Positions 2,421 to 49,696 are shown, numbered from the whole stretch's first letter. The stretch: DNA of 58,733 nucleotides, filler included, from Dugesia japonica (GCA_001938525.1; 5 parts of 5 records of this genome joined end to end with filler, not necessarily neighbours in it); one strand, 5' to 3'. Program-made: numbers and translations. The notes: generated by a model not told the origin, from the letters alone.

Positions 2421-2526
2421 ATAAATAAATGTTTTAATATTAAATTTTATTTTAATTCTATTCCTTTTGCTAGTTAATTGGCCTGTTTGTTACCTAACTA
2501 ATAAACTAATGTTATATCTTGTTTAG

Positions 2527-9548: not shown

Positions 9549-9550
9549 AA

Positions 9551-10451: not shown

Positions 10452-10764
10452 ATAATAATAATAGTACAATTTGTTAAGAAAGTGTTTGGTCAATTGATAT
10501 TGAGGAAAATACAAAAATATTTAATTTAAATAAAACAATTAATCAATATTTTGACCATCAATTTTCTATTAATATACAATCATTTAAAAACGATGACTCT
10601 ATTGAAAGAATAAAACTTAGTTATAGTTTCTTTACTGTAAGTGATCATACATTTTGATTTGAGGATGAATTAGAGGATGAAAGAATTTTAAAAAATTAAA
10701 TGAATATATTATTAAAAACTGTTCAAAACTATTTAAATCATTCACATTAAAGCCTGGTCAGTTA

Positions 10765-12341: not shown

Positions 12342-12670
12342 TTTGGGTTGTTAGGCTTTTGGATGTTGTTTAATTAATTCTTTGTTGATTTTCATTTTTC
12401 TCTCATGTGTTATCACTTTCTCTCTGATTATCTTTTCTCTCTGGGGGATGAGACCTAACAACCACAGAAATTTGTGTTACTCTCTCCAGCAACGCGATCC
12501 CCCTTTTTCCGGATTCAGCGGGACTATGCTGTATCCCGTCTTAGGTTCAATTTCTTTCAATCCGGCTCTCATTCTTTCGACATTTAGATTTTACTAAGCA
12601 ATATACATTTATTTTACTTATCTAATAACGCAAAGGATATTTGATACAACACTGTTCATTATTTTCTAGA

Positions 12671-13868: not shown

Positions 13869-14342
13869 TTAAACCAATACTGTTCTGTTGACGTTTATTT
13901 GAATTTCCTTTTCAAATAATCCATAAATTAATACATATGCCGGTACAGACAAAGCTTTTGCAAACTTTATATCCAATCGTAAATTACCTGGTAGTGGTAA
14001 TTGACTTTGATTTATATTAAAATCGAGTGTTAATAGAAATGTAAAGAAGGTATATTTGGTTTTAAATTCTTCAAGTGTGATTCGACAATTCCCATGTTTT
14101 TAACTATAGATTGCATGTATGTCATACTATAATTTTCCTTTTCAAAATTTTTAGTATATATCTCTCGATAATCAGTGTTTTCGATAAGGAAATAGAAGTA
14201 GTATTGAAGTGTTTAAATGTTGAACTTGAACTTTTATAGACACCATTTAATTGTTCTTTAATGTGAAATGTGATTTGAATAAAGTTATGCAAAGAACGAT
14301 TACCAAATATTTGCTCCTTATTAAACGAAGAACTATCTTTAT
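13869..14342 (-). pseudogene. Polinton major capsid protein, C-terminal part (inverted)
   Basis: SSSFNKEQIFGNR, NGVYK..FKHFN, GNLRLDIKFAKAL..LIYG.FEKEIQINVNRTVLV*. Confidence 0.85.
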
Positions 14343-17900: not shown

Positions 17901-18193
17901 AGAATGGATTTTCTTGAGACCGAAGTGTTATAGCCTTTTGAGTGATGATACAACAATGAAGGCAAAAGTCATAACAATAAAGAACAGTAATTTAAAACAT
18001 CAGTCATACCTTCACTGTTATGAAAATAATTTGCCAGTCTCAATAGATCAATTTAGAATTGGTTTGATAAACCACTAGCTATGTAGTTTAAAAAAACAAA
18101 AAAGTTGCACTGACTAATAACGACGATTAGCGAGTGTGGACTAACAAAAACATATCAGTACCATATGGACATTACACATTAGACAGCATATAA
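14987..18193 (+). pseudogene. Polinton protein-primed DNA polymerase B (stops, frameshifts, internal deletions)
   Basis: GGIRGG, YIDINNLYGWA, KLLNNSLYGK, GDTDSF, GKFKDE, LRPKCYS, C-terminal PYGHY. Confidence 0.95.
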
Positions 18194-19989: not shown

Positions 19990-20885
19990 ATATATCCAAA
20001 TAAAGTTTATTTTATATAACTAATTCTCTTTTAGAGACATTCTAGAATTAGCCAACATTATTAATGATAATATTAAATTCACTTTAGAGAAATCAATTGA
20101 CTTTTAGATTCCTTTTCTGGACACTAATCCAAAAGAAATCTGGTGAAATATTAACTGCCCAATTATATATGAAACCATTTCACAGTGGTCATATATTACC
20201 TTGGACTAGTAATACTACCATCAGCCAGAAAATTGCTGTAATTAAAAGTGAAAGAATTCAAGCTGAGAGACTATTTTCAAATGAAGAAATGAAATTGAAT
20301 TCTCTGAAGTTGATAAAAAATAAATTTTTAAATAATAGCTATCCAAAAAATATTATATCGAAATATTTATCTTTAAAGACAAAACAAAACAAAATCAAAC
20401 CAATAACAAACACAGTTATTAAATTACTTTTTATTAATGAGAAATGTAGCCTAATCATGCAAAATATAATAAAGAGTTCTAAACTAAAACACATTCCAAG
20501 AATTATATTCAAAAACGAAGCACCTTTGGGCATCCAATTACAGAAAACAATGCAAAACAATTGTGGTCTCAAATGCAATCGTGCTGGTAAAAATATGTGC
20601 AATAAAAAAAATGTCACTTATAAAATAACATGCACCATTTGTCAAGAAACATATATAGGTGAAACATCGAGAACCATCCGAACAAGAATTAAGGAACATC
20701 TGAAACAAAAAGAAAGTGAAGTATTCAAACACTTTCAACACAAACATAGAATTTCATCAGAACAACATTACATAACATAGAAAACACTTGGAACAGACTA
20801 CATTTCTACACTACATAGAAAAAAACTGGAAGAAATACTAATCAAAGAAGACAATCCTAAAATAAATATAATTTACAATAATTAA
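19990..20885 (+). mobile_element. 5'-truncated Penelope-like retroelement (RT C-terminus + GIY-YIG endonuclease)
   Basis: IKFTLE..IPFLD, YMKPFHSG, NVTYKITCTICQETYIGETSRTIRTRIKEH. Confidence 0.9.
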
Positions 20886-22721
20886 ATTAAATTAAATTTA
20901 AAATAAGAATTAAAAAACCCGATAGAAATTTAATAAAAATGAATTAATTCAAAAATTATTACTATTATAAACATAAATCTTGAATAAATTAAAAAAGTCA
21001 ATTCCTTTTTAAGGCAAAATCGAAATATCGAATCAATCTCTAAAAACAAAAAAATTTTGATCGAAACTTTTATCTAAAAAACGATAATTGGTTATGTCCA
21101 ACAATTATTCTCGCGATAATTGCAATTGTTAAACAATTATATATATATGTATAAAATTAACCAAAGAGAGTGTTTGAATTGACCAATCAAAATGATGAGT
21201 TCATGCTGACCTATCAACCGTATATTTGTTTTAATTATGCCTGGTTACCAGCAATTTCAAATTTTTTGTTTAAATTAACAAGTAAATTTAGCGGAAAATT
21301 CAATTTTTTTGTTTATTTTAAAGAAAGCAGTGATGATATGGTGTCCTGTCAACCGTATGACTTAGTTTTTGTTTTAATTAACAAATGAATTTTGCGGGAA
21401 ATTCAAATTTATAAATTTTTTTCAAACGAAATTATTTCTTTGAAAAATTTTTTTAGCATTAAATTTAAAAATTTTTTCATTTCTTCTTCTTTTTCTTTCC
21501 TCTATCTTTTATTTTTTTTTATCTTTTAATTTTTTTTATTTTTCAGGGTTTTATATATTTGTATACAATGTCATAGATAATTTTATACAAAAATCTTCCT
21601 GTTGGTTACAGTGTCGTGTTATCGGATTTCGGTTAAATGAGTCTAGTGTTGTGATTTTTTGTTAAATTTTGATGATCTTTGGTTTGAATAAAAAAGAGAG
21701 ACGGGGAACTGGTGATGGTATAAAGATTTGGTATATTGTAGGGGATAGTTTGTATGTGTGTAAAAGTGTATATTTTTAAATTGAAAATCACGACAGAATG
21801 TGTGTAGGATTATGATTTTTATGTTTTGATGATACATCTGATTTGATCATCGAAGTCGGTTTATAGTTTGCCATATGTAACTAGAGCTAAAATGATTGAT
21901 TTGCATACATGCATGTTTTGTGTTACAAAAACGATTTTCAAGTATATTTTTAATAGTTTTATGAGATTAAAAGTTATATGAAATGTGATTAAAAATTATT
22001 AACCATGTGATTTTGGATGATGTGTGTTGCATCTGTGTTGCTTCCCTATTATCTTTTTAAGAAAAGAATTCATTTCAATGGACCTTTTTAAAAAAAAATT
22101 CATTACAATGGAACTTTATATAAGTAATTCATTAAGCGTAGAACTTTTTTAAAAATAATTCGTAAGCGTGGAATATTTTTTTAAAAATAATATAAGTGTG
22201 AAAATACTTTATAAGACTATAAAAAACTTAAGTAGAAGGGATAACTTCAAGTTTAGTCGAGACCGTAGCTCTAAAGCTGTGCAAATGATAAAATATACTT
22301 ATTATGAGTGCAAACGATACCAGTACAAAAAAAATCAATACCAGTCGAGCAGAAATTAAGCAGTGATTACATAGGAAAAAAAAGAGGGTAATCATTACCA
22401 GTGGAACAAAGTTTGATACCAGTATAAAAGCCCAACGGTTTCCACTTAAGAATAAAAAAAACCAAGGCTTGTGTTTTCGGTCTGTGTTTTTGGCTTCGAT
22501 TTGTTTATTAAATTTCAGCTTGTAGGTTTGCGGTTTCATAATAAAATACATCAATGCACATTTAGGAAAAACATGTCGATGAAACTCGTAGTTATCCTCT
22601 ACTTGTAATTAGATTTTTTATTTGTTATTTTGCATTAATAAAAAAATAGAAACGCAAATGCAAATGTAAATGCAAATAGATTTTTTGATTATTTTATTTT
22701 GTTATTTTATTACTAAAGAAA

Positions 22722-22890
22722 ATGGTTGATGCTACAAAATTAAATTTTGATAATAATATTAATTTTCAACACTTTTTTCTAAAAAATGATGTTTTAAGAA
22801 TTTCACCTTCACCTGGTTCAATTAATAATTTAATGTCTTCTGGAGGTATTGTTTTTCAATCTTTACAATCAACAAATCCATTAGATATTT
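22722..22890 (+). pseudogene. Probable N-terminus of a second Polinton/adintovirus-type MCP, cut by a minisatellite
   Basis: DNNI..ISPSPGSINNLMSSGGIVFQ..PLDI resembles MCP N-termini; the frame then runs into repeats. Confidence 0.45.
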
Positions 22891-23560
22891 GTAAATATGT
22901 AAATAATATACGCATAATACATGGTTACTATGTAAATAACAGACTCATAAACCCTATATTACATGGTTACTATGTAAATAATACACACAAAAATCATATA
23001 ATCAACGGTTGATATGTAAATATTTCATAGTACCTAAACAAATAATACACGTGTAAACCTTATATTACACGGCTAATATGTAAATAATATACTCATAAAC
23101 TCTATATTGCATTTTTACTATGTACAAAGAACCAACATAAGCCTTAAATTACACGTTTGTTATGTAAATAATTCCCTCATAAATCTTATATTTCAAAAAA
23201 TCTTAAATTTAATGTTTGTTATGTAAATAATACAGGGCAACTATGCAAATAAAACATGTTTGCTATTTAAATAATACAAGGTAACTATGCAAATCATACA
23301 TTCATTAACCATATACAATCATAAAAATATTTTCTTATAAGTTTTTATAAAGAAATATTACTTATTAGTTATCTAAAATTGACATGAACAAGACGAGAGC
23401 ATGCATTGTGCATGATGACCTTATATTACATGGTTAATATGTAAATAATATACTCATAAAACTTATAATGCAGGGTAACTATGCAAATAATATACTCATA
23501 AAACCCGAAATAAAGGATTACTATGTAAATAATGTACTCATAAACACACATACACTGAAA
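22891..23560. repeat. Degenerate ~40-bp minisatellite (ATGTAAATAATA..CTCATAAAC); inverted relative at about 19750-19870
   Basis: Direct inspection. Confidence 0.8.
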
Positions 23561-23629
23561 ATCACGTGACTATGAATTTTAGACTGCCACATCCTTTAAA
23601 AAATACCAAGGATGCCCGAATTCTTGTAA

Positions 23630-23890
23630 TAATATAGAGACTATCTATACCATGTAAAATATAGAGTCTGTCCATACCATGTCAAATATCAAGACTGACC
23701 ATACTATGCTAAATATTAAGACTGGCCATACCATGCAAAAATACCATGCTAAATATAGGGACTATCCCATGAAAAATTTAGAGATTCATCCATGCAAAAA
23801 TATCAAGTCTGCCCCTATAATGCTAAATATAGAAACTCCTCATGCTAAATATCAAGAATGATCCATTTCATAAATAAATATAAAGTCTGC
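23630..23890. repeat. Degenerate ~24-29-bp tandem array (AAATATCAAGACT..CCATGC)
   Basis: Direct inspection. Confidence 0.75.
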
Positions 23891-23899
23891 TCCAAAAAA

Positions 23900-24720
23900 A
23901 TTTTAATTTCTCATGCAAAAATAAATTTTTGAATTTCCCGCAAAAAATATCAAGACTCCTCTCTTCCTGGTTCAAAAAATCTTAAAAAACAAACCTTCCC
24001 GGTTCAAAAATACATCAATTTTACAAAAATAAAGATTTCAAAAAATTATGACGTCATACACTACAGCCCGAAAAATTTTAAATAAATCTTATAAAATCCG
24101 ATAATTAATTGTCTTTCCATACATGCCACTCTACCTCTCCCGAAAAATTATTTTAACACACTTATACTACTTACAAAAATCAACCAATCAAATTCAAGCC
24201 TTTAAAATAAAAAATCAAAGCACAAAAAATCAACCACATACAAACCTACAGCCTCCCAAAAAATACTCCCGCGATAACTCATATGACTGATCTGATGCGC
24301 TACCACACATCTAGCAAAATCCATCCATCCAAACTCATAAGTCCTTTTAACAATATATAGACCAAAATTTTGGCCAACAACCACCAAATCTTAAAAACTA
24401 CAAAAAATTATTTCCAAGATCTCCAGCTACTCCTCGAGTCCAAAACCATTCTTTCACACACACACACAACAACACACAAACTCAACCTGACCTACTTTTT
24501 AAAAAATAACTTAACAACCCAAACACACACAAATTTTAAAATTTAAAAATACACACACACCACCAGGATTAAAAAAATATGATCCGATCAAAAGTTTTTT
24601 GATCCCAAAAATCTTAGAAAAAAAACTAACCAATAAATCATAGCACAATCTTTATGTGTTTTCGAGCCCCCCCACCCCGGGGGTTCTGTGCTCAATTGGC
24701 CTTATGCGCTACTATCTACT
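23900..24720. mobile_element. Polinton terminal region ending ...GCGCTACTATCTACT
   Basis: Reverse complement AGTAGATAGTAG fits Polinton 5'-AG/AGT-repeat termini; PLA2-integrase coding sequence starts abruptly at 24721. Confidence 0.75.
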
Positions 24721-25756
24721 TACTGTAATCCAAAATCTGGAGAAGAACCAATTAATAGAGTTGATGTAGCAGATTTAAAACATGATTTATCTTATAAATC
24801 AGAAGATTTAGGAGATAGACATTTGGCTGATGTAAGTTTAATTCATGATTTCAACAAAATTGAAAACTCAACTATTTCTAAAAAGATGCAAAGAGGTTTA
24901 GTAAAATTAGCAATGAAAGGTAAAATTATTTTAGGTGCTGGTGTACGCTCAAATAATGAAACATTATCAAATGAATTTCATAAAGATTATAGAAAACCTA
25001 AAAAATATTTAAAAGTAAAAATAAAAGAAAAAGATAATTCTTGGGGTTGTGATATTATTGATATGGTTGAAAAATCTATTGATTAAGAAACATTTAGATA
25101 TATTTTGGTTTGTATTGATTTATATTCCAGATTTGGTTTTTGTATTCCAATGATAAATAAAAATCAAGAATCATTAAGAGAAGAGAAAATATATTTGAAG
25201 AAAAAAATAGAATTCCAAATTATATTTGGTTTGACAGAGTCAGCAATAAGATCAAAATATTTTGATAAATTTCTTAAAGAAAATGATATTAATTTATACC
25301 ATACAGAAAATGAGGGTAAATTAGTTTTTGCTGAAAGATTTATTAGAACTTTAAAAACTAAAAGGCGGAAATATTTTACATTTGTTGAAAATCAAAAAAG
25401 GAATAAAATCTTGTTAGATAAAATTGTAGATGATTATAATAATACAATTCGTTCTAGTATAAAAATAACTCCAAAGGATGCTTGTAAAAATCCAGATAAA
25501 ATAAAAGAAATAATCGAAGATCATAATCATGACAATGATAATATAATATTTTAACAAAAATTTAAAATTGGAGATAGAGTTAGAATCTTTAAATATAAAT
25601 ACAAATTTGAAAAAGGATTTACAGCTAAATGGAAAAATGAAATATTTGTAGTAACAAAAGTGTATAATACAAAACCTTTTACTTATGGAATTACTGATTT
25701 AGAAAATGTAAAGATTTTGGGTAGATTTTAATGAACTTCAGAAAACTGTTTTATAA
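24721..25756 (+). pseudogene. PLA2-like domain fused to retroviral-type (rve) integrase
   Basis: PINRVD..KHDLSY..RHLAD (PLA2-like); WGCDI, CIDLYSRF, IWFDRES, AERFIRTLK, YNNT, KFKIGDRVRI. Confidence 0.9.
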
Positions 25757-26287
25757 ATTTTAAATTAATAAATTAAAATGAGTGAGAATTTCTTTGATGG
25801 GACCCGTTGAGATTTTATTTTAAAAAGTATTTTAAAAGAGGACTCAAAAAATACTCTTAAAGAAGAAATTAAACAAGAATTAAAAGAACCTCTTAAAGAG
25901 AAATTAAAAGAAGAATTTAAACAAAAATTTAAAGCAAGAATTTAAAAAAGAATCAGAAGAAAATAAATATTTGAAGAAATCACTTGCAGCTGTAAATTCA
26001 CCAGAATTATTTTGGAAGTGGATAATTATAAATAAGCCTAATGATAAAAAATATGAAACCATGACATCTGAAGAAATAGATGAAGAAGTTGTAGTATTAA
26101 TCAAATATTTAAAAAATTTCAATTTTACTAATACGGATCCATATAGTAAAGTATATTAAATTTAATAGTAAATAAAATAAATGATGAACGTATGGATAGT
26201 TATATAGATCAAAGTGAAATAAAAGAATTCTTTGATAAAAAAATAACTTCTGATTATGAAAATAAATTTTAATTTTTATTAGATAAA

Positions 26288-26560
26288 ATGTCTGAGTTAA
26301 TTAGTAAAAAGATGATTACCAAAACGATGATACTTAGTTTGTCCATATTCTTTTTTATTAATCGGAAAACAAACCTAGCAGTAATTGATTTGTTTACAAA
26401 CGAGGTATTTATAGAAAGTAAATCATTATTAACAAGTTCACTTGGAAAAATATTTAATACTTATAATAGAATTCCAAAAAATTTATGGGTTTTAAGAGGA
26501 AGTGTATTTTTGAAATCTTATTGTCAGGAAAATAATATTAATTTATTTTTTATTAAATAA
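26288..26560 (+). CDS. Miniature integrase-core paralog
   Basis: AVIDLFT..KIF..NRIPKNLW..FLKSYCQENNINLF parallels CIDLYS..IFEEKNRIPNYIW..FLKENDINLY of the upstream integrase. Confidence 0.6.
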   Translation: MSELISKKMITKTMILSLSIFFFINRKTNLAVIDLFTNEVFIESKSLLTSSLGKIFNTYNRIPKNLWVLRGSVFLKSYCQENNINLFFIK

Positions 26561-26562
26561 AA

Positions 26563-27330
26563 ATGTCTAAGTTGATTTGGAATAAAAACAAATACATATT
26601 TAATAATAAAATCTTTCCATATAATTTTAGATTATTAATAATTGGTTCTTCAGGATCAGGTAAAAATGTTTTGTTAATGAAAATGTTATTAACTCCAGAG
26701 TTTTTAGATTATGAAACTTTAATAATTTATTCTACAACTAAAAAATCAATTCGAATTACAATTACTCTATCAAGGTTTTGAAAACGGATTAACAAAAAAA
26801 GGTATTATTTTTATTTTTGAACATCAAAACATAGTTCCTGATTCTTTAATTACTCCTTTGCAAGTTATCCAATGATTTATAGAAAAAAGGTATTTAACCA
26901 ATAAACCAAGATTAATAAACGTAGTTTTAAGTAATAAACTAAATGAAATTATTCCTTGTGAAAATTATCTAAACAAAAAAAGAATTTAATAATTTTTGAT
27001 AATGTTGTAAATGTCAAAGATCAAGAAATACAAGTTATTTTACTAGAGGAAGACATGTAAATTGTAATGTGAATTATATTTCTCAAACTTATTTTAATTT
27101 AGATAAAAACTCTATTAGAAATAATTCCAATTGTTTCATCTTTTTCAACTTAAATAAAACAAATAAAGATAATGTTTATTATGATTTATTTAGTAATATA
27201 TTTTCTAGTAAAACGGAATATGATTATAATGTAAATTTACATTGAAAAACTAAGTATAATTATTACTATTTAGATAGAGAAGCTGGTGTATTAATAGAAG
27301 ACTTATTCGAAGAGGAGGTGAAAAGAGGAT
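26563..27330 (+). pseudogene. Polinton packaging ATPase (FtsK-HerA/A32-like)
   Basis: Walker A IIGSSGSGK, Walker B LIIFDN, FTRGRH, ISQTYF, SIRNN. Confidence 0.9.
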
Positions 27331-27431
27331 GATAGAGGTAAAGAGGTGAAAGAGGAATTGAAAGAGGAGAAAGAGGATTTAAATTTGTATACTAAACATA
27401 AATAAGAATATTTTTATTATTTTTTAAGAAA

Positions 27432-27912
27432 ATGTCTTCAGTATCAGAACAAGAATTAATGTAAATCGGTAAATATAAATGGTTAAAACTATTGGATTGC
27501 TACTAAAGTTAAAGAAAAAGTAAAAAAAATTAGGTAAATAACATGGAGGTGGTTTTGCTTTCCTTGCTGCAATACCAGCTATAATTTCTGGTTTAGCATC
27601 AATAGCTGGAAATGCGACTGGAATAACATCAACTGTTAGTAATTCTAGAGATGCAATTAAAAAATAAAAAGAAACTGAATTAGTTGAATTATAGAAAAAG
27701 GAAAAATTATTTCAAATAAAAAAATTGGAAAAAGAAGGTTTAGAAAATAAAACTGGAAGTGGATTATATTTAAAACCTTATCAAGGAAGCGCAATACATA
27801 AATATTTAAAAAACAGTTTATCAAACCTAGAGTTGAAGTTGATTACTAAAAACTTTAAAAAAAGGAGTACAAATAAAAACTAGTGGCGGTGGTTTATATT
27901 TAAAACCTTATA
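27432..27912 (+). pseudogene. Core/protein VII-like precursor
   Basis: HGGGFAFLAAIPAIISG and repeated GSGLYLKPY / GGGLYLKPY protease-site-like motifs. Confidence 0.65.
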
Positions 27913-27915
27913 AAA

Positions 27916-28690
27916 ATGGATAATAAGGAAATGTTGGCAAGAATAAAACTTTTAAAAGAATTAATTAAAGTACAAGATAATTTTAATAATTGATTAACTG
28001 GTAATCTAATTGAATCCCAAACTTTAACAGATACTTTAACCTTTGAACAACAACTTACTTTTAAAGCTATTGAAAAATTAAACACAAAACCTATACACCC
28101 TTTTGAAAATAGAATACCATTCTTTCCTAAAATTAATTTAAATGTTGATAATTTATCTAAAACAATTATACCCATATTTGAAATAGAAGTTATTAATAAT
28201 AAAAACTTTCAAAATATAATTTACCCACACAAAGAAATATATTTATTTGAAGAAGATGGAAAGAAATACTTTTTTTATCTAATGAAGAACTAATATCTTA
28301 TTCTGAAAAAGTAATGAATTTAATTTTAGGAAACGGAAGTAATGATCCTGAAGCAAAATATATTTATTTAAATAAATTAAATATTACATTTCCTCCTAAT
28401 TTTAAATATTATAAAGTTTTAACTGGGAAAAAACTACTAAAATATTTAAGCTTAAAAAAGAAACTCCTGTTAAAAAAGAAATCCAAGAGAATTTTATGAA
28501 AGGTGAAGGTTTAAATTTTATTTCAAACTCAGATCAGCTATCTTTATTTGAAAGATTAGCATTATTAATTTAGCAGTGAAAGCAGGTCATAATAATTTAC
28601 ACAAAGAAATTAAATCTATTTATAAAGAATTATTAAACCAAGAATTAATTACCAAAGAAAAATATAAAGTTTATAAAAGTAAAAATTTTA
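27916..28690 (+). pseudogene. Conserved Polinton/adintovirus protein with GEG and AGHN motifs
   Basis: KGEGLNF..LFERLALL..KAGHNNLHKEIKSIYKEL. Confidence 0.55.
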
Positions 28691-28700
28691 GTTAAATAAA

Positions 28701-29366
28701 ATGTCTCATCAATTTTTAGTTGTTGGTAAAGAATCTAATTTAGAAGTTGATTTAAGATTTACAATTTAATTAGATTCTGACAATGAAATGGGTTTATTAT
28801 ATTTTAGTTGTTATAATATAATTTTAAATGTTACTAGTAAAAATAATACTTTTATTTTAAATACAGAACAAAAATACATTGAGCCAGGTGCTTATGAAAT
28901 AAAAGAAATATCTAATAAATTAAAAGATCATGGAATAGAAGTTACACCAGATCTTTCAACAACAAAATGTAATTTAAGAACAAAACATACAATAAAATTT
29001 AATGTTAAATCTTTTTTTCACACAATCTTAGGTTTTTCACCTCAAAATAATTTAACAGGAAAATATTATTCAGAAAATAAAGTTGATATTTCAAACATTA
29101 ATGTGATAAATATAACTTGTAATTTAGTTAAAGGATATTATATTAACAACTTTCCAATGAATTTATTATCTTCTTTTCCTGTAAATACTGTTGGTTTTGG
29201 TTATAAAATTATAGAAAGACCTCCAATTCCTATTTATTCAAGATTAAACTCTAAATGTATTGATTCTATAAAATTTAATATTATAGATGAAAATAATAAT
29301 CCAATTGATTTTAATGGTGAAACTATTTCTTTATTAGTTCATATAAGAAAATGTATACAATCTTAG
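28701..29366 (+). pseudogene. Polinton minor capsid (penton), one 5' frameshift
   Basis: IEPGAYEIKEI, ILGF, VDI..INITCNLV, GYKIIERP, IDFNGETISLLVHIRK. Confidence 0.85.
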
Positions 29367-29575
29367 ATTTTCTATAAACATTTGGCATAAATACTAAAAC
29401 TAATTTTGATTTGTATTCCATTGCAGATTTTTTAAATTTAGAAATTGAGATTTAAATGTAAGATGAAATTGAGAACGAAATCTTGAAAAATAAAAATAAT
29501 TTTGGTGACATGCATGTCACGAAAAACAAAAAGTATATTATTAATTATCAAAATACAAATCAAAAAGGAAGCTCA
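29351..29575 (+). pseudogene. N-terminus of maturation (adenain-like) protease
   Basis: TNFDL..DEI..YIINYQNTNQKGS precedes the expected catalytic His; truncated. Confidence 0.55.
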
Positions 29576-30369: not shown

Positions 30370-30925
30370 TTAACACCACAAATACATAATATATAAACAC
30401 AAGATAATATTTTCAAGAAGTATATAGACAAAAATACGGAGCTAAGATCGAAAAGTACATGAGACCTAGATAGAAATTATTATAAGCTTTTAAACAAAAG
30501 TCTATATAGATAAAAAAATAGAAAATCTAATGAAACGGATAAATCGCAGACTATGCAATGCAGCCAAAAAGCTTATTACATACGCTATGTAGCCAATGTT
30601 TAATAATACAGTTAAAATAGACCAGTATTTAATTGTGGTATTGCTGAATAAAGATACATTTTGTCTCAATCGTCCTAGATATATTGGTCAAACAGTCTTG
30701 GACTTGAGTAAGCTAAGAATGTATCAGCTCTAATTCATCGATCTTGAGAAATATAGGAGAAATCAAAAATGTTTCATAAATATAGTGCAGAAGATACAGA
30801 CAGTTTTTTCGTGGAAGTGAAAAATATAAGATTGGAAAGATTGATAAAACTGATAGTTCAGAATGAGTTGTTAGACACTACAAATTATAATTCAGACCAT
30901 CCGCTTTATAATGACAAGTATATTA
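30370..30925 (+). pseudogene. Polinton pPolB fragment related to 17340-17850
   Basis: IFKKYIDKNTELRS, YYKLLNKSLY, YIGQTVLDLSKLRMYQL, DTDSFF. Confidence 0.85.
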
Positions 30926-31139
30926 GTAAACGAACGCAAACTGGAACTCACACAAAACCCTCTTCACACAGAATTAGAAAATGAAGTCACGGGACAGTGT
31001 TTCGTGACCTTTTGTTCAATCTTGAAAAGAAAGAAAAGAAGAAGAGATTTTGTTGTGCATGCCCATAAATAAAATAAATATTTAAAATCATATTTTGATT
31101 ATTATTATTAATTAATTAATTAATTGCATTAAAATCTGA

Positions 31140-35090: not shown

Positions 35091-36129
35091 TTATGATGAA
35101 ATTCGTATGACGACTTCTATACTTTCTATGTAGTTGTCTCTTATTTTCTATGATGACTCGTGTATCTACTATGATGCTACCTGTATATTATATGATGAAG
35201 TGTCTGTTTTATGTTGAAACTGTAATTGTCCATGACAAAGTGATTATTTTACATGTTGTAGTATTTATTTTCAATAATGAATCCTATATTTGACATGTTG
35301 ACTTGGAAATTTAATGCATTGTTTTAGAATTTTGTGTGATGAAATCAAATCTAAACTAACTACTTTTTATGATACCCCTAATAATACTAGGGAAATTTAC
35401 AGATTATGTTTGCTAATACGTATAATAACAATTATTATAAATGCCAGTAATCATAACCATAATGTTTTTTTGCATTATATGTGAGGCTGATTCCAATTTT
35501 TTATCAATGTTCGAACCAGAGTTAATTTTCATATTACGTTTTATAATTAATTTAACTTTCATTCTTTTCTTGCTAATAATAATTTGGTTTAATTTTAGGC
35601 CACTTATTCCATTTTCATTCGTTACATATTATCCCATCTCTGTGATTTCTCACTTTTTCGTTACAGCCTAAAAAATTAATTGATTAAATTTAAAAATTGT
35701 ATTGAATGATATAATTTTATGTATTAAGAGACTTAAATAAGTTGATTGAATGAAATAAGTGAAATAAACTGATTGACTGTTTAGAAAGGCCGGGAAATTA
35801 GGAGAGTGAATTAAATGAGTATATTTAGCAGTTAAAATCAATAATTTATTTTAAGTGAACAATTGTATAAATGAATTATATTATGTAATCAGCCGATTCA
35901 AACAATGCGATATATTACGTAATAAATTATATGACATTGCTACTTTATGTGATATGATAAATAATAAGTCATTATCAGTTTATATGTTAAATTAAACTCT
36001 TTTTTGGGGAAATATTATCATAAAAAAAATTTATTTATTTAAAGAAAAATAAAACCCTGAAAATGTTTTCCAATTAAATAGTTTATTATCAGAAAATATA
36101 AAATAAAATTAGGAAAAAAATATTTTCTT

Positions 36130-37214
36130 CAATCAAAATCACTAAATAATAAATATTTCTCAATGAATTCATGTTTCATTAATTGATCTATTGTTGCTCT
36201 CTCTTTTGGATCTTCTTTCACACAACAATCAATAAAATTGACTAAATCTGGTGGTTTGTTTGTTCTATCATATTTAATTGTGTGAAACGTTTTGATTTCT
36301 GCCATGTCGTCACATTCAAATAATCCAGGAAATAGTTGAGCACCTTTAATTAATTAATAAAAATAAATCATAGTCAGTATAATATTCACCTGTGATAATA
36401 TCTATCATAATAACACCGAGTGACCACACATCAATACTCGCTTCATGAGGTTTACTATCCAATATTTCTGGTGCAACAAATGTCAATATACCATCTCTTT
36501 GTTTGAATTTATTGGGTTTATCATCATTAAGATGATCCAAATATTTATTCATATTGAAACTTGGTAATTTCACATCATATGTTAATATTTCATTAGTTGA
36601 CAAGAACATTCTCATTAGTATCTTAATTATTAGAAATTATAATTTCTCATACATGATGAAACCTTTGTTGAATTCTCTAACCCGATATAGATCCACTAAC
36701 AATCCATATAAATACCAAATATTTGTATAAATCTTGGGTGAGAATTTTGTTGTTTAAAACATTTGGAAATCTTCCTTCAAAATCATCAATAAATCGTTAT
36801 CATGTGCAGTTTCCTTTAAGCCTTGGCTATATTGGCTTATCAATATTGGCCTATCAAAGATTTTACTTTTTGCTTTGTATACATTAATAGGACCAAAACT
36901 CTTTATTGTTGAAATAACTTCAATTTTATCCAAACTAATTTTGTTTATAATTTATATTTAATCATAATAAATTCACATCGTGTGAAATAACAAAATTCCA
37001 CCAATGATTTACTATCAGTATTATATTCATAAATGGATTTATCATTTTGTAATAATTTCTTATTGAGAAATACAGCATAATGATTGGTTGCCATTTTATG
37101 TTGTATTTTCTGAATAGATTTCTTTATAATGTCTGATACANNTTCAAATTTTGAGANTTCAATTGATATTGTTTCTTTATCACTGAAAATTGATTTCATC
37201 GTAATATTTTGCAT
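36130..37214 (-). pseudogene. Ubiquitin-like domain + degenerate protein kinase, with short introns
   Basis: GILTFVAPEIL, IDVWSLGVI, CCVKKDPKERATIDQLMKHEF; N-terminal Ubl (FLNKKLLQNDKSIYEY); stops in the N-lobe. Confidence 0.75.
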
Positions 37215-37865
37215 TTCTCTATTTTATAAAGATAAAATATAATTATTTTGATTGACGTTTAATTATATTTATATTATTAGAACGTAATTAGATTGCAAAT
37301 AGATTACATCTTCTTTACGTATTTTATATAATAAATGTATAAATATAATATAATATAAATAACTATAAATGTCTAAATATTTATGTAATATTCAATAAAG
37401 TTATCGATACCTCTATAAAAACACTATAAAACCATGTATACTCTTTAAAACGTTGAATAAAACTTACATATAATATCCACATTAAACCTCTATAAATCAC
37501 TCAAAATTTATTTAAATCACTAAACGTCCTTAAAACCCGTATAATGAATCTGGCAACAAAGAAACGAATACCTGAAAGACATTTTCATATACAAAATGAA
37601 AACAAGTAGAAGGGCAAGTTTATTATGACAACACGGAAATGATTTTTTTGGGCTGCACTCTTACGGCTTCTAAGTTTGTTGGGTAAAGTGCCTGCAACAA
37701 GTGCAGTTGGTGCTGCTACAGGATATACTACAAAGAAAAATATTTATTATGTAAAATTAATTTAAATTCTTTTTGATAATGCAAAATAAATGGGTGTTGC
37801 ACCTTTTTCCCCTAATATTCCAGACATTTCACTAAGTATTCGTTGATGTATTTTGCGCGACCACG

Positions 37866-38045
37866 TTGATGGAACAACTATGGTGCAATTTAAAGGAGCC
37901 AGTTGGATACACAGGTATTTCAAAGCTTTCAAATGTCGAAAATGTTTCGTTAAAAGAGACAAAGAAATGGTTTGGTAATCACTTTGCGTATAGTTTGAAT
38001 AGACCAATGCGAAAACGGTTTCCAATACGGACATATATTGTTTTA
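37866..38045 (+). pseudogene. Polinton integrase N-terminal fragment
   Basis: PVGYTGISKL..KKWF..AYSLNRPMRKRF. Confidence 0.7.
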
Positions 38046-38340
38046 ACATGCTTTTATTTTTTAATGACTATGTAATGAAAATGGATAATGAAAAACAATT
38101 ACGCAATGATAATGTACTAGTAACATAATATTGATTGTGTTATTGGGAAGCGGTTACAAAATGATTAAGCAACGATTACGTTCTTGCTAAATGGCTAATA
38201 AATAACTATTACTTAACGTGTCAGACTTCGCATAACCCCGGTGTAAGTAAAGGAAAATTTGCTTGATATTTTGAAAATATCAAAACATAAAAAGAATAAA
38301 AATATTATCAAATTGCATACAAATAAATTTAATTATTTAC

Positions 38341-38565
38341 CGAAATTTGTGCACACATTTTAACCAATCGTTGTCCTCTATTTTGCAATCATCAATTTTT
38401 ATATTATCATATAATTCTTTAGATTTGTAGAAAATCAATAAATCTTCATGATTAGTTTTATTCAATTCAGAAATGATAACTTTTAAATCTTTGATTTGTT
38501 GATCTTTCCAAATTTGCAACATTTCAAGGTAAATATTGTGACATTTTAATTTTATCACAATCATT
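38341..38565 (-). CDS. Exon encoding a ubiquitin-like domain
   Basis: IKDLKVIISE..LLIFYKSKELYDNIKIDDCKIEDND fits the Ubl pattern; ends at a GTAAAT donor. Confidence 0.55.
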
Positions 38566-38754
38566 GTACTATTAAAACAAAATAATAATAATAATGACAA
38601 ATTTTTTGAAATATTACTTGACATCAACATTATTATCAAATTCACAGAAAATTGNNNNNNNNNNNNNNNNNNNNNNNNNNNNNNNNNNNNNNNNNNNNTT
38701 AATTAATTAANNNNNNNNNNNNNNNNNNNNNNNNNNNNNNNNNNNNNNNNNNNN

Positions 38755-38847: not shown

Positions 38848-40380
38848 GAAGTATTGAAATGGTTATAGATATTACAAGCCCGACTGTAATAATATGTCCC
38901 ATAATAAAAGTAATCTATATCTAGGTTATTATGAAAGGCATTACTTTTGGATTAAAAGATTATAGAAATCTCGGTGAGAAATCTTCACATACAGGGAGTG
39001 GTTCATAATTATGTGACAGATGTTTTAATTATTCAAGAACAATAGATGCTTTCAAAACGCATAAAGAGTTTTGTGAGTCAATTGATAATAAATCTAGATT
39101 AATTTTTCCGGTTGATATAAAAAATCAGTTAAATGAGGCTATAAAAAATATAATCAATGTCAACATCCAGTAAAAAGAAGAGACTTACTCGAAAAATGCA
39201 CAAAACTAAAACACAAATATGAAAGAATGTCTAATCTAAAGTTTTCACAATTTTATTATAAGTTAAAACAACCGTTTGTGATTTATGCCGTTATCGAGTC
39301 GTATCTGGCAAAAACACCAAGAGTTATTACTACTGTTGCAAGAATAGTAAATACCAATATTCCATATACAATTACGCTCTATTTCAAATCTTTATATCAA
39401 GAATCAGCGCAAGATTATACTAAGGTTTTCTATGGACCTAATTGTATGGAAGAATTTATTAAATTTGTGATCGGAATAGAAATCGGAGTGTATAACACTC
39501 TTGAATAATTTTTAAAGAAACCTATATAGCAAAACTAACAGATGATGATTTACTTAATTATTCTAATTCTTCCGATTGTTGGATTTGTGAAAAACCGTTG
39601 TGTGGTAATAAGGTTTTAGACCATGACCACTTTAATGGAAAATATAGAGGAGCAGCACATAAAAGCTGTAACTTAAATCTAAGTTTGAAGAATTTATTTT
39701 TACCTATATACTTTCATAATGGAAGTGGATATCATTTTCATTTATTTATAAAAGAATTAGCAAAACAAACTAGATTAATAGGACGGGTAGATGAAATAAA
39801 TATAATACCTTAAACAGAAGAGAATTACATGTTAATTTCATATTGGAAAGTGAGATTTTTAGATAGTTATCGAATGTTGCAAAACTCAATAGAGGCAATA
39901 TCAAAATCATTAACAAAAGATGAAAGTAAAATATTATATAATTTTTGTAAAGAATCAACTAGATTAACTCAAGATATTAAAAGATTAACTTTCGAAAATA
40001 CAACGAATGATATTATCGGAAATCAAATAAATGGAGAAATAACTAATAATGTAGGTGAAGGATTAAATATAGAATCAGTAATTCTTGAATCAGTTTCACC
40101 TGATGCATTATTTGACTTAATCAAGAAAAAAGGAGTTTATTCATACGAGTGGATCGATAATCCATCAAAATATTATGAAACACATTATAAAATAAATGGT
40201 GGATTTCATCTTTTATCAATTAAATCGTTTTATTCAAGATTATATAATTATTTGCCGATTCTTGAGTATTTAATATTAAGTCAGATGATTTATATAAAGA
40301 AATAAGAGAAAAGAATTTTAAAGAAATATTTAACCTCAGCAATTATAAAATAAATAGCGCTGTTGCAAGAGAATTACAAT
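38848..40380 (+). pseudogene. Polinton pPolB N-terminal half with endonuclease VII-like insertion
   Basis: CWICEKP..LDHDHFNGKYRGAAHKSCN, FHNGSGY, RFLDSYR, KKGVYSYEWID. Confidence 0.9.
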
Positions 40381-40715
40381 TGTTGGGGTTCCACCTAAGT
40401 TTATGGTAAAATAAGATGGCTGGGAAAAAGTCAGCCCTTCAAGGGACCCTTTCAAGAACCCGGAGTTTCAAAACCCGGAGTGCTTGTACTCAAGTCAGCT
40501 TTGTCTAAATACATAGAGAAAGGGTAAGTTAAAAAAATATAAAATAATAATATATAAAAATATACATAAAATAATAATCATCTAATAAATATATATGTAT
40601 CTCCGTAAAATATGGAAGCTGTGAAAAAAACATAGTATATAACTGTGAGAATTAAAATTAATGTAAATAAATAATATTGCATAACCAGAAACAATTACGC
40701 ATATAAATGTAGATA

Positions 40716-41912
40716 ATGGAATTTGGTCTGGACTTATCGATAAACGAGGCGAGACTTATAATGAATGATCCAGATATTAAGTTACATTGTATGAGCCAAG
40801 GTCGGGAGAAAATAAAACAAATTTCAATAGTCCAAAACATAATGCACTACCGTAACAGTTTGGGAGCACCAGAAAATTTCATACGCCGAAGAGTATGATA
40901 TAGTCAAACGAAGGTTTTCGACGAAAAGTATCCAGATGAAAATACAAGAGCAAAATCTTTACTCGAGTTACCTAAATATTTGCATGGACTTATTCAGGCT
41001 ATAGCCAGATTTGGGTTTTATTACACCGGTACCCAAGAACGGCCAGATAAATTAAAATGTATATATTGCCAAGGAAACCTGTGCAAATGGAGCATGAACA
41101 ATAAACCCAACCGAGATCATAAGAAATGGTTTCCTACCTGTCCTTTTCTGTTAAATCTAGATGTAAATAATAAAACAAAACTCGTCAAATGAAAGAAATC
41201 AAAAATTGAAAAAATAACTCCGGATCCAAAAAAGTTATATTGTAAAATTGTAAAAAATCTAGTGGAAGTAACACTACCTGATGATCTTGAATGGAATGTC
41301 GAAGCTAGAGAAAAAGCTTTTCAAGAGGCACCAGACCTAATAGAAGAGGCCATGGAAGGATTATATATCATCCAACGGACAAATAACCAAGTTATAAAAT
41401 GCACAACATGCAAAAGAGAAACGTTGTTATTAAAGGGGGTAGAGAAATTGCCAAAGGATATATTCCACCACAAAACATGTTCAAGATTGAGCCAAAGTAA
41501 TGAGGAAGAATTACCAGTAACCACCTGTAGAGTCAAATGGAATATGTCCAATAACAGAATGGAAATGGCGATCGAATAACAGCCAACAGACTAACCAATA
41601 TACTTAAGTTAAAGAGGGAAAACATCAACCAACTGATAAAACAAACGGTCGCAGGGAAAGGGACAGAACTAATCACACCTTATGAATTATATCAACAATC
41701 ATTCAGAAAAGAGAATCAACAAGTAAAGTATGAGCAAGAATGGGTATTAATGGATAATAATTGTGTAATATGCCCGGAAGAAACAATCGAAGTCATATTT
41801 CTTTCATGNNNNNNNNNNNNNNNNNNNNNNNAATTCCGCGATAAATTTAAATGAATGCCCTATGTGCCGGAAAGTAATCGAACGTAGGGTATTGGGAATA
41901 AAATTTCATTGA
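40716..41912 (+). pseudogene. Inhibitor of apoptosis (BIR, degenerate BIR, RING), intronless, with stops
   Basis: ARFGFYYTG..DKLKCIYC..W..DHKKWFPTCPFL; second KCTTC..HHKTC; RING CVIC..IFLSC[gap]..ECPMCRKVI; ORFs 40716, 40980 and 41262 share one frame. Confidence 0.9.
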
Positions 41913-42013
41913 TCAAATAAACGTAAAATACGTAAATACTGTATATTAGATATATATATTTGTCAAACACTTTATTTAAACTAAATTAATCACTCCCTCT
42001 AATTTTAGAAAAA

Positions 42014-42961
42014 ATGAATACCGAAAATTTAATAAATCATCTGATAAACGAAATTCAAATCTTGCAAATTCAAACCCAAACTCTCTCAACAATACCCGAA
42101 GTTACAAAATGGAAACTAGAGTAAAAAATAAACGCCCTCTCGAATCTGCAGCTGCAAAATTACAACAATGAATTAAAGGGACAGATAGAGAAAGCTCGCC
42201 ATGAGCTAGAAACCAAAAAACGATCTTGCAAATCCCACCAAAAATACATAAAAAGCAACATAGACACAAATAAAGCTAAAATAAATGCGATAAAACAAGC
42301 ACGAAACTGAAAGATCAAATATGAGCAAGTCGAACCCACAAGAAAAAAACTCAAAAATCAGTTACGCATTGAACAAGAAAACACCCAAATTCTCAGAATG
42401 AAGTTATTTAACACACAATTCAAGAAAACCCGCCTGGCAAGAGAAAATCAACTACTGACCAGCCTGGCCAATCAAGACGGTGTCAGAGCTGGCATAGATA
42501 AACTGTCATTGGAATTTGAATGTATAATTCAAGAGTATCAGAAGCAGAACGAATACAACGAGCAGTACAAATCCGCACTAGAAAAAGAAATCATCGAGTT
42601 GAGTAATCTTTGTCTAGAAAAGGAAACAAACATCAACAAGAAATAACAGCATCTAATCAAACAATTCGCAATAATCAAAAAGCTGCAGCAATTGCATGTA
42701 GTTTGTCAACCTATTTCTCACCCAGTTGTTACTTGGAATGTCATACCAGTTCTACCTAGTACAAGAGGCCTACTCATTCTAAACCCACCAAAATCATCAC
42801 TAAACCCAGCAGCCCCAGCATGGAAATTAATACCACCGATAATCTCGCCAATACCAAGACAATCAACACCTCTAATAATCCAGGAACCCAAAAATTATAG
42901 ACACAATCTCTCAATCCCAACGTGGTCAATAAGCAAAACCTCGGTAATCAACCAAACCTGA
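42014..42961 (+). pseudogene. Long coiled-coil protein with Pro-rich tail
   Basis: ATG just after ttttag acceptor; Q/E/K heptads; several stops. Confidence 0.6.
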
Positions 42962-43697
42962 CCAAATAGACGCCAATGAGAGTTCTAAAACTCTGCAAAA
43001 AAATCTAAAAATTATGGGCACCACCAATCAAAGCAAGACAGTTGGAATTAAAAATAACCAGCCAATAACAACTATGTCGAGTTGTAAATGAACAGCTATT
43101 AACCCCCCCCCCCAAAAATTTAGACGAAAACACTTTTTTGATATTCACAAAATTTTGAGTGGAGATTGCAACCATTACAAATACATAATCTTAAAGCAAA
43201 GAAACTCTCGACAATTAACCAGTGTAAGCCGGTAAACTCTAATTGTTGATTTCAATTGTTACAAACAAATTGTAGAAACAAATCTCGCTCACCAAGTGGA
43301 AAAAATTCTTATTATAACCCAGTGGAATTAATTGAAGATACGAATAACCGAATTTGCTCAGCATTCATCCTCTTCGCAGAAAATTTTTTATCTATTAGTA
43401 AGTGAAGGGTTCATATTTGTTTATTAAAAAATATTTGTTGAAAATTATATAAATGATTAATAAATACTTAGTGTTAATTTCCATTATTATTTCTCAAACA
43501 TTACATACAGTATTTAACATTAGGAGTATTTTGATTCATAGATAGAAAAGCGATGGCCTCATAAACGGACACATTAGTCCCGATCAACCAGTGTCGATTT
43601 TATATCTTGATGTAACCACAAAGTTTGACATCGTGGACTTACGATATTTCAAAACTCATACAATCGAGACGCCGGCGTACTAATATAAAGAGCAAAT

Positions 43698-44009
43698 TTG
43701 TCAGCTAGAGTTACACATGAGGAAAGACTGATGGACGCCACTGACAGACAAGCATATTATCAGTGGACCGGCCCAGATCGTAGTCGCGTCATCCTTTCGG
43801 CGCGCGTGATATCTACTAATTACGCCAATGGAATGCCAATCTACGAACGAGTATGGATAGAGAACACTACACCGTCTCCAATGCCCGTCACGACACTGGT
43901 AAGATTAGCGGGGTTGATTAACGATAACCTTTGGAGAGCTCGGAATGCGTCAAACAATAACAATGATGAAAACTCAGATCCCTATCCAGCCGACGAACCT
44001 TTTATTTAA
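43698..44009 (+). CDS. Orphan cargo ORF (3' part), distant homolog of 1509-1769
   Basis: YQWTGPDR motif, same slot in the element, AATAAA near 44025. Confidence 0.5.
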   Translation: MSARVTHEERLMDATDRQAYYQWTGPDRSRVILSARVISTNYANGMPIYERVWIENTTPSPMPVTTLVRLAGLINDNLWRARNASNNNNDENSDPYPADEPFI

Positions 44010-44179
44010 AATTGGTGTTATGTGAAATAAATATAGATAATGAAATCTTCTTTAATTTAGTTAACTTTTGTTCTCTACCAAAATAACTCAAACTTTCACG
44101 TAACTTTATTTAACAAATAATTTTAAAATCGGTTATATACAATTGTCTTCTTGTTCTAACTTATAATCTACAATTTTAG

Positions 44180-44538
44180 TGCATTCTTCATCAAATCGAG
44201 CTGTAGTGCCCACCAAGAAAATAAGGGAATCCAGTGATGAGACCAAGATCACATGGGACCTCTATAAGCTGGCGAAAAAGCGATAGGATGCCGATACTGC
44301 TTCGACTGAAACCAAAGTCCGCAGGTACAAAAAGAAATGCCTAGCATTTAAAACAGAGGCCGAGGCGTCTCATGACTAGAAGAGGGTATGGAAAACCCAA
44401 TTAGAATCGCTTACGGAGATCATCCGGTCCTACCAAGACCGAGAAAGTAAACTGGTTGGTGATATTTTAAAATTACGAAGGGTTATGCCCCTTTCACCAC
44501 TTATGGTGGACAAAGGAGTACAAACTTCCCGACCATGA
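44180..44538 (+). pseudogene. Coiled-coil cargo ORF, homolog of 2050-2420, two TAG stops
   Basis: ttttag|TGCATTC start; codon-level conservation with copy 1. Confidence 0.75.
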
Positions 44539-44668
44539 ACTTCGCTCATTAATTTTAATCGTATAATAAACAACTTCATTTGTCTGGGGTTTTAGAATAA
44601 TTCTTTAGTTTATGTTTAATTACTGTCTTAAATAACCTGTAACGAATAATTAATGTACTTTTATTTAG

Positions 44669-45027
44669 TGCCACGTATAATTTTCCCTAACAGCTTACGG
44701 CGTTGTCACAGAATAATGCGGAGACTACTTCTTGAACGACACCTCAAACGCCAGTTCGAATGTGCATTGATCAAACACCTTGCACAACGAAATAAGCTTA
44801 TAAAAATGCTAGATCTCATAGTTAAGAAACAGGGAGATATAGCAGAACAAACGAAACAACTACTTCAAAATAAAATCGATTTTTTGAAAAGATATATTAG
44901 ATTTATCCTGCCAGCACGGAAACGCGTCATGGTTACAATGGAACGACAATGACGATGAAGCGGCATTTAATTTTTTAGATGACGATCCCCCCAGTGGTTA
45001 GACCCGGGTGCTATGGATTTCATGTAA
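44669..45027 (+). pseudogene. Cargo ORF, homolog of 2527-2909, frameshifted near the end
   Basis: atttag|TGCCACG start; PRIIFPNSLRR..QWLDPGAMDFM*. Confidence 0.75.
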
Positions 45028-45701
45028 TATGATACAAAATATAATTTAGTTAACGCTTTATTAATTGATTTTGAAAGTGATAGTATAGGGAAAATAAAAA
45101 ACCCGAACTAAAGGTGTATGAGTGTGAACCTCCAGTAAAGGTCGAAGGTCAGCCGCTCTACACTGATTATCTAATTTAGGGACATTAGATTTAATTTCTT
45201 GGAGGGGTACCCCTGATGGCCGTTTTTCCCCGGCCAGTATTTTTGTTTATCGTCAGCTCAGGTGGGACCTCAACAATATTATTATTTATTTACCTACTTA
45301 CCTCAAAACTCAAGCAACGAAAGGATTACACCTGAATCACATGCATAAGTCATTGTTAATAAATTTCTTTCACGTAAAAAAATTATCAATTTTTTAATGA
45401 GTGCGCTACGCACTGAAAATTGCTTGCCCAACAGTGGATTGAAATAATTAATTAATTTTTTGCAATCAATAACAGTCAATAAATTAAATTTTGTTAAATG
45501 AAAAAAAAAATTGGTACTAAAATAACAAATAAGTATCATATATAAACTTTAGACACTCTGATTAACCTTTATGATTTATTTTTAAATATAACTTCGAAAA
45601 TAAAATTATAAAGACTAAATAATAAAAACAAAATTGAATTATTTACTACTTTAATAAAATGATTTACTAATGGATTTTAATATTAATCTATAGAATTATA
45701 T

Positions 45702-48333: not shown

Positions 48334-49696
48334 TTTAAAATCTTTAATTAATAAATTTAAATAATTGTAACAATCAATTAAATAATTTTTTAAATAATTT
48401 CTGATCATCTTGAATATTTTTAAAATTTATATTTGAAAAATTGTATTTGAGAATATTTCACTGGTGTATTAGCGAAACTTTAATTTCTTCTAACCGTTTA
48501 AATAGTAAGTTTACATTTTACATGAACTACTTAAACAGATTTTTCTTTGAGTAAACTTTTTATCGACGCTCACGCTAGGTTGGGTACATCCGATCTAGGA
48601 ATTTTAAGAGCAGCACTGAGTTTCATTAGTACTTATAACGTGAGGAAAGATTAATTAACTGTATTATTAACGACACAAGTTGATTTCATGAGTTGAATTA
48701 CAACATGAGAATTCTTTTAATTAATAATTGATTTTCGTCTCAATAATTGATTTTTTATGTGTTTGCCATAACAGTTTTTCAAATGTATTTATATATATTT
48801 CTATTTGTATTTTGTATCTTCTGTTTTAGTCAATGCATCCGATAACAAAATTAGAGACAAAAATATGACATCAATTAGAGTTGATATAGATAGGTATAAT
48901 AAACTAACATTTTTATTTTAACTTAAAAATGCTTTAGTAGAAAAAAAATGGTTAGAATAATGAATAATGGTCAAAGTATACCAGTAGTAATGCATAAAGA
49001 GCATAATCAAGTTTTACCTGATAAGAAATGTAATGCAACTAAACAATCAAAATTAAAGNNNNNNNNNNNNNNNNNNNNNNNNNNNNNNNNNNNNNNNNNN
49101 NNTTAATTAATTAANNNNNNNNNNNNNNNNNNNNNNNNNNNNNNNNNNNNNNNNNNNNATCAAATGGATTATATAACATAACATGGTAATCCGTGATTTT
49201 ACTAAAATAAAATATATCAATTTTAAAATTTTTTCTTTTTTATTTATGTTTAATGTCATTATGAATAAATTAACAGTAATCGAATTGAAATTACATCATA
49301 TTTTATTGTCGAATAAATATTTATCAATAACACATTTTAAATAGAACTATAAAATTTAATTTAAAATGATTATCAGGTTTCTGCAACGGATTTCCGCAAA
49401 TTTTTCTTCTTTTCTTAATCGGTTAAACAGGTGCGATCCAAATTATTTTTGAAAGATATCTTCTGTTTTTTAATTAAATGATTACCTCAAGTCCGTATAA
49501 AAACTTTATTACTTGGCCTTGATANNNNNNNNNNNNNNNNNNNNNNNNNNNNNNNNNNNNNNNNNNNNNNNNNNNNNNNNNNNNNNNNNNNNNNNNNNNN
49601 NNNNNNNNNNNNNNNNNNNNNNNNNNNNNNNNNNNNNNNNNNNNNNNNNNNNNNNNNNNNNNNNNNNNNNNNNNNNNNNNNNNNNNNNNNNNNNNN

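Follow-up and report, generated by a model that had tools for sequence, protein, structure and literature searches.

A decayed mobile element in Dugesia japonica DNA with a candidate single-leader arrangement of alternative acceptors and poly(A) signals

Several described systems come close to the locus reported here. Flatworm operons are defined by gene spacings of up to 300 bp and are resolved by trans-splicing, and the flatworm spliced leaders reported so far terminate in AUG (PMC12582326). Ginger1 and Ginger2 (TDD) elements display TGTNR ends, inverted repeats of 40–270 bp and lengths of 2.6–7 kb, and introns are known in them (PMC2836005). Burro, a giant Gypsy retroelement of planarians, exceeds 30 kb, with a 25-kb interior, and encodes BIR and Smc-like domains (PMC6431247). 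The present locus occupies positions 40381–45275 of a stretch of 58,733 nt from Dugesia japonica (GCA_001938525.1; five parts joined with filler), hereafter the window. With confidence that stands at about even, it is proposed to be a non-autonomous element with integrase-type ends, the cargo genes of which would be expressed via one leader, alternative splice acceptors and alternative poly(A) signals, while the start codons of two open reading frames (ORFs), A and B, would be completed at the splice junction. The architecture is real and selected and lies within a dead mobile element.

The initial annotation had located the pattern at 40501–45027. The pattern itself holds, whereas the unit that bears it is wider and includes inverted ends on both sides of that interval. 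Its left end begins TGTTGGGG and its right end closes with CTCAACA, so that the TGTTG at both ends corresponds to TGTNR termini. A partial second copy (copy 1) lies near the start of the window; all comparisons were made between copies inside the window, among which there is one left end. The features are as follows.

40381–45275, plus strand: whole element, copy 2; 4895 bp, bounded by inverted repeats TGTTG...CAACA, no target-site duplication
40381–40460, plus strand: left terminal inverted repeat, about 80 bp, containing small palindromes
40381–40523, plus strand: putative leader region of up to 143 nt, without an ATG in frame for phase 1
40524–40529, plus strand: consensus splice donor GTAAGT, the highest-scoring one of the element, 143 nt from the left end
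40711–40712, plus strand: weak acceptor candidate of the IAP-like gene, ATG 4 nt downstream
40716–41912, plus strand: broken IAP-like gene with BIR, Cys/His cluster and RING-like end; AATAAA at 41916
42007–42008, plus strand: acceptor-like AG of the coiled-coil ORF, preceded by 57 nt without AG; ATG 6 nt downstream
42014–42961, plus strand: broken coiled-coil/proline-rich ORF of 315 codons, including 3 stops; AATAAA at 43459
43540–43545, plus strand: two weak acceptor candidates of ORF C, AGs ending at 43541 and 43545; ATG at 43553
43553–44009, plus strand: broken ORF C, with a donor-like site at 43899 and AATAAA at 44026
44179–44539, plus strand: ORF A of copy 2, AG/TG start in phase 1, 2 stops; AATAAA at 44565
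44668–45027, plus strand: ORF B of copy 2, AG/TG start in phase 1, with Met17 and a change of frame close to the end; AATAAA at 45093
45028–45275, plus strand: conserved right-end segment, 63% identity to copy 1 (z 17), with the right terminal inverted repeat at about 45194–45275
1506–3161, plus strand: right part of copy 1, with ORF C (1509–1847), ORF A (2049–2420), ORF B (2526–2909) and the right end at 3161

The two ends of copy 2 form an imperfect inverted repeat of about 80 bp with 69% identity (z 9.2 against dinucleotide shuffles). The left end of copy 2 is 74% identical to the right end of copy 1 (3161), and the right ends of both copies are 73% identical to each other; all three pairings reach z 8–9 against the same kind of shuffles. 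Copy 1 has ORFs C, A and B and the right end in common with copy 2, and no recognisable trace of its left part was detected in the window. The upstream region 1–1500 shows none of the A-rich skew typical of the cargo ORFs and gave no Pfam match of note. It contains GC-richer stretches at 130–640 and 930–1420, upstream of the copy-1 ORF C, with the fewest stops on the minus strand. An Rfam search produced 0 matches. When the terminal segments were folded, z ranged from +1.1 to −2.8, inconsistent between strands, and no conserved RNA structure is claimed.

Comparison of the two copies clearly separates ORFs from spacers. ORF A is 68% identical at the amino-acid level, with 26, 16 and 60 mismatches at the three codon positions, a proportion of nonsynonymous differences (pN) of 0.19 against a synonymous one (pS) of 0.69, and a ratio of nonsynonymous to synonymous rates (dN/dS) of 0.12. 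For ORF B, pN is 0.21 and pS 0.85 (saturated). Judged from these substitution patterns, A and B were real genes once under purifying selection. Conservation over the whole spacers is undetectable (z 1.5 and 1.7), against z 25 and 26 for ORFs A and B. It had been annotated that homology starts exactly at the AG, and this was found in both ORFs: from the AG onwards, 9 of 9 bases are identical in ORF A and 8 of 9 in ORF B, while the four blocks upstream have 1–3 and 1–6 of 9 identical bases, respectively.

At all four A and B sites, the AG is followed by TG in phase 1, in agreement with the first description. AT-rich DNA contains 239 acceptor-like sites, of which 15 (~6%) are followed by TG, and these 15 probably include the four sites in question. 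The accompanying statement that no ATG is conserved is correct for ORF A, in which the first methionine is codon 47 in copy 1 and codon 103 in copy 2, the latter being the first shared one; it does not apply to ORF B, which displays Met17 in both copies. Among codons 1–16 of ORF B, the amino acid is kept in 13, nine of these through synonymous changes, and three amino acids differ. This pattern indicates that translation began upstream of Met17. The ORFs following 42008 and 1507 (coiled coil and copy-1 ORF C) had been grouped with A and B as starting right at the AG. They possess their own ATG 6 and 2 nt past it, and altogether the IAP-like, coiled-coil and C genes have an ATG 2–8 nt past an AG.

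No ATG-supplying donor common to both copies was found in the 400 nt preceding A or B, and the exon before the donor at 40524 contains no open ATG in the phase needed by A and B. As far as the sequence can tell, the first codon of A and B was likely completed at the junction, from the last base of the leader and UG. The donor at 40524 would deliver GUG, with A at position −3. Alternatively, a donor whose exon ends in A, as both donors of the host gene Med7 in the window do, would deliver AUG. A phase-1 coding exon upstream of A and B, not seen so far, is possible.

Splice donors were scored with a generic matrix written from general knowledge. The previously noted consensus donor G/GTAAGT, with GT at 40524, was recovered; it outscores every other GT site in 40381–44668, and its score is reached by only 3 of the 5188 GT sites on both strands of the window. 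The AGs ending at 42008, 44179, 44668, 1507, 2049 and 2526 were likewise confirmed, with 19–117 nt free of AG upstream, and five of these six acceptors have a branch-like pentamer at most 45 nt away. At the sequence level, one upstream donor is followed by several acceptors directly before ORFs.

The stops had been described as mostly followed by AATAAA, and the signal was indeed present within 50 nt of 6 of the 7 stops tested, a distance that was picked after looking at the data. In shuffles, the chance of an AATAAA near the stop was 0.04–0.18 per spacer and 3e-6 combined; in copy 2 alone, 3 of 4 stops are followed by AATAAA (shuffle chance 0.006). The next AG lies 86–174 nt beyond the AATAAA, and the signals recur in the order acceptor, ORF, AATAAA, about 85–175 nt, next acceptor. 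No donor common to both copies that would link the ORFs together was found. The idea of separate mRNAs is thereby upheld as regards anatomy (stops with AATAAA, unconserved spacers, no shared joining donor). Two mechanisms had been offered for it, of which splicing in cis fits better. It is preferred because the element has its own strong donor near the left end and because a flatworm-type leader ending in AUG would open only 3–9 codons at A and B.

In the proposed mechanism, an integrase supplied from elsewhere is likely to have moved the element. A promoter within the first 140 bp of the left end would drive a single precursor, with the donor at 40524 predicted to serve as the source of the leader. 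Each AATAAA would be cleaved part of the time, cleavage competing with read-through, and the leader would be joined to whichever acceptor most closely precedes the cleavage site in use, so that the mRNA would be composed of the leader and one terminal exon. The outcome would be five mRNAs, one per cargo gene. For the IAP-like, coiled-coil and C genes, the leader would land 2–8 nt ahead of the ATG. The role of the IAP would be to sustain the survival of the host cell.

Several observations weigh against this proposal. Under the same matrix, the two host Med7 donors score just 0.2 and 1.7 bits, and the donor at 40524 could be compared with no other left end, the window holding a single one. The exon before it ends in G and contains, two codons ahead of the donor, a stop in frame, so that the model requires either non-AUG initiation or a different donor. 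The acceptors of the IAP-like gene and of ORF C are weak (41–53% pyrimidine). Within ORF C of copy 2, the donor-like site at 43899 is strong (5.2 bits), lacks a counterpart in copy 1 and could supply a phase-1 ATG in copy 2. TATA-like hexamers occur in the AT-rich stretch before the IAP-like gene and at 43446, and own promoters are therefore possible for IAP and C. Target-site duplications were not found at 40381/45275 at any length tried (2 of 4 and 3 of 5 matches). Finally, the two ends of copy 2 may stem from different insertions, since its left end is no nearer to its own right end than to that of copy 1.

The flanks bear on this last point. The left flank of copy 2 reads as a Maverick PolB frame up to the element end (Endonuclease VII Pfam match), with further motifs that we take to be those of PolB. 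The right flank of 45275 does not carry on this frame, and the two flanks were therefore probably never contiguous.

Among the competing explanations, an operon was considered in which cleavage of the precursor takes place at every AATAAA and downstream genes receive their cap through spliced-leader trans-splicing; it is regarded as rather unlikely. The distance from AATAAA to AG would suit short intercistronic regions in which a poly(A) signal precedes an acceptor, a leader with a final G would yield the same GUG, and a host ORF near 48829 displays a long U-rich tract and an AG 4 nt before its ATG. This tract (48790–48835) corresponds to either an intron of the 5' untranslated region or a trans-splice site. 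The element, however, possesses its own top-scoring donor. Joined directly, an AUG-ending leader would open 8, 4, 3 and 9 codons at A of copy 2, A of copy 1, B of copy 2 and B of copy 1, and 2 codons at the coiled coil. The AUG of a flatworm-type leader would be out of frame at 4 of 4 A/B sites, an argument that binds only for a flatworm host.

It is also unlikely that the unit represents a giant solo long terminal repeat (LTR) of a Burro-like Gypsy retroelement. In that case its genes would be accessory ones, joined by splicing to a donor that lay either within the LTR or in an interior now lost and that might have supplied the start codon as well. The TG...CA ends, the length of 4.9 kb, the BIR, which Burro encodes too, and the mismatched flanks, as expected after recombination between copies, would agree with it, and other TGTTGGGGT ends in the window presumably resemble the starts of Gypsy LTRs. 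An inverted repeat of 80 bp, on the other hand, is long for an LTR, and five sense poly(A) signals would hamper the production of full-length RNA. No gag-pol, primer-binding site or polypurine tract was found beside the ends examined, features that a solo LTR would lack too. In Burro, the BIR is a domain of a polyprotein and not a stand-alone gene (PMC6431247).

Independent genes with their own promoters, A and B being translated from an unspliced GTG or from a small local first exon, appear improbable. The ATGs of the IAP-like, coiled-coil and C genes and the TATA-like hexamers before IAP and C are in line with such genes, and both AATAAA and TTTAG are common in AT-rich spacers (3.5 and 2.0 per kb). 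However, neither a TATA-like hexamer nor a shared local donor occurs in the four spacers that precede A and B, which measure 106–219 nt and are unconserved save at the AG, and an unspliced GTG would have T or G at −3. That the ORFs are exons of a single multi-exon gene, as the site at 43899 might suggest, is barely credible, given that copy 1 has no matching donor, that the best donors near the ends of its ORFs A and B score below zero, and that conservation reaches the stops, which are then followed by AATAAA.

The preferred reading of one leader with alternative acceptors can be extended tentatively. The element could belong to a class of small virus-like elements that encode no enzyme, have inverted ends of the integrase type and may be satellites either of Mavericks or of giant Gypsy elements. 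In this class, an adenovirus-style unit would express an IAP and four orphan regulators, and splicing would supply two start codons, thereby switching translation on. In this full form, the extension is doubtful, if conceivable.

The cargo consists of five broken ORFs (IAP, coiled coil, C, A and B), all on the plus strand and each richer in GC than the spacers. Over the eight ORF segments counted in both copies, 13 stops were present in 1296 codons, indicating that both copies are decaying; in copy 1, ORF A is open and ORF B has 4 stops. The first gene combines a BIR (PF00653, E 3e-16, with BIR matches in the PDB too) and a second Cys/His cluster with a C-terminal RING-like end. It therefore has the composition of an IAP, although the RING is weak (E 0.046) and interrupted by an N gap, and the gene is broken by stops, frame changes and this gap. 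No longer relatives of the BIR piece were found in what was a weak test, and no viral loci were found. The coiled-coil ORF may extend in other frames to about 43420 and contains what we take to be a PAM2-like motif. ORF C is 31% identical between the copies.

A six-frame Pfam search of 40600–45275 and 1–1500, with stops as X, identified no transposase, integrase or reverse transcriptase. ORF B and the coiled-coil ORF gave no meaningful match in Pfam, the sole homology check applied to them. No match to ORF A was obtained in a set of 5.8 billion sequences; a search of 1.84 billion representatives yielded three matches, which were discarded as tandem-repeat proteins. Neither the ORF A protein nor a 20-base motif common to both copies was located in metagenome or viral contigs. 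In the ESM Atlas, ORF A led to unnamed clusters only, with low recognition, and ORF C to nothing. The predicted fold of ORF A is one helix of 84 residues (predicted local distance difference test score, pLDDT, 77), and that of ORF C is unusable (pLDDT 46). The A and B proteins are helical and basic and likely had a nuclear, regulatory role, albeit by weak inference.

The window as a whole is AT-rich animal DNA with host genes and abundant Maverick/Polinton debris; the 24 sequencing runs listed for it bear the label of a single species. The host genes include Med7, with introns of ~45 nt, a TopBP1-like BRCT gene (5457–8114; an 885-codon exon with repeated segments inside) and a kinase, pieces of which are found together with two ubiquitin-like ORFs at 36129–38702 on the minus strand. 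The closest relatives of the TopBP1-like gene stand at 54% and 46%. Decayed Maverick/Polinton fragments were located at 9500–9830, 10681–12364, 15400–18080, 22700–29400, 30400–31000 and 39137–40380, and comprise PolB, phospholipase A2-like, integrase, ATPase and capsid-like ORFs. A similar unit is present on the minus strand at 13579–12364, with an acceptor-like AG at 13579, a coiled-coil ORF, a spacer, a second ORF and AATAAA. Its second ORF is weakly similar to ORF A (pairwise E 6e-4), with an in-frame AAG/TG at 12979. The unit terminates in a TG...CA-type end at 12364, which interrupts a Maverick capsid-like gene, and it is preceded by a C-terminal piece at 13869–14099 that is presumably capsid-like. 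A third right end (10200–10451; …CTCCAACA) has a 15-base motif in common with copy 2, about 200 bp inside; its terminal repeat differs and folds back on an internal 11-base complement. The ends at 40380, 10451 and 12364 adjoin or lie near Maverick-derived sequence, which may be due to targeted insertion or simply to the abundance of Mavericks in this region.

A separate family with TGTTGGG(G/A)TGAAACACC ends was observed at 3264, 29649, 38847 and 50320. CCAAT- and TATA-like boxes are present in the copy that extends leftwards from 50320, which presumably represents a Gypsy LTR. A Penelope-like fragment with a GIY-YIG endonuclease lies at 20088–20780. The minus-strand segment 55284–56096, which gave no Pfam match, is assumed to resemble the restriction-like endonuclease end of a non-LTR retroelement.

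Transposons have seldom been described as multi-gene units under one leader. Narrow keyword searches of the literature returned no transposon in which a single leader is combined with a choice of acceptors and of poly(A) signals, and no direct precedent for a splice-completed start codon. If confirmed by RNA, the locus would extend the adenovirus-late strategy to a small mobile element and would offer a natural example of start codons completed by splicing. The presence of a stand-alone IAP among selected cargo suggests that the element manipulates host cell death. The main prediction is directly testable, as public RNA-seq data exist for the host species.

Compared with known systems, the element shares with Polintons/Mavericks the inverted ends and several small ORFs (PMC6431247). 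It is not a Maverick: PolB, integrase, ATPase, protease and capsid genes are absent inside the unit, such matches occurring only outside, and its size is far below 15–25 kb. With Burro it has in common the BIR and coiled-coil cargo, TG...CA ends and possibly the LTR size (PMC6431247); in contrast to Burro, its BIR belongs to a stand-alone IAP gene, gag, pol and env are lacking, and the inverted ends are long. It agrees with Ginger elements in TGTNR ends, inverted-repeat length and size range. Its repeats, however, are just 69% alike and it carries five unrelated cargo genes. With neither the 4-bp (or 5-bp) duplication nor, in six-frame Pfam searches, the Gypsy-like DDE transposase, it was not filed as Ginger (PMC2836005, PMC10045372). 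The available portions of PMC8532177 and PMC11410931 added nothing on structure. Like flatworm and nematode spliced-leader operons, the unit has same-strand genes and short spacers with a poly(A) signal and then an acceptor (PMC12582326); it differs by its own upstream donor, its location in a mobile element and the failure of an AUG leader to be in frame at A and B. In the adenovirus major late unit, too, one non-coding leader is combined with alternative acceptors immediately ahead of the start codons and with several poly(A) sites (PMC7070027). Here, by contrast, there is one predicted leader exon and one poly(A) signal per gene in an integrated unit of 4.9 kb, which lacks capsid and polymerase genes and in which two ORFs are without their own AUG. 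The resemblance to adenovirus is one of layout, not of kinship.

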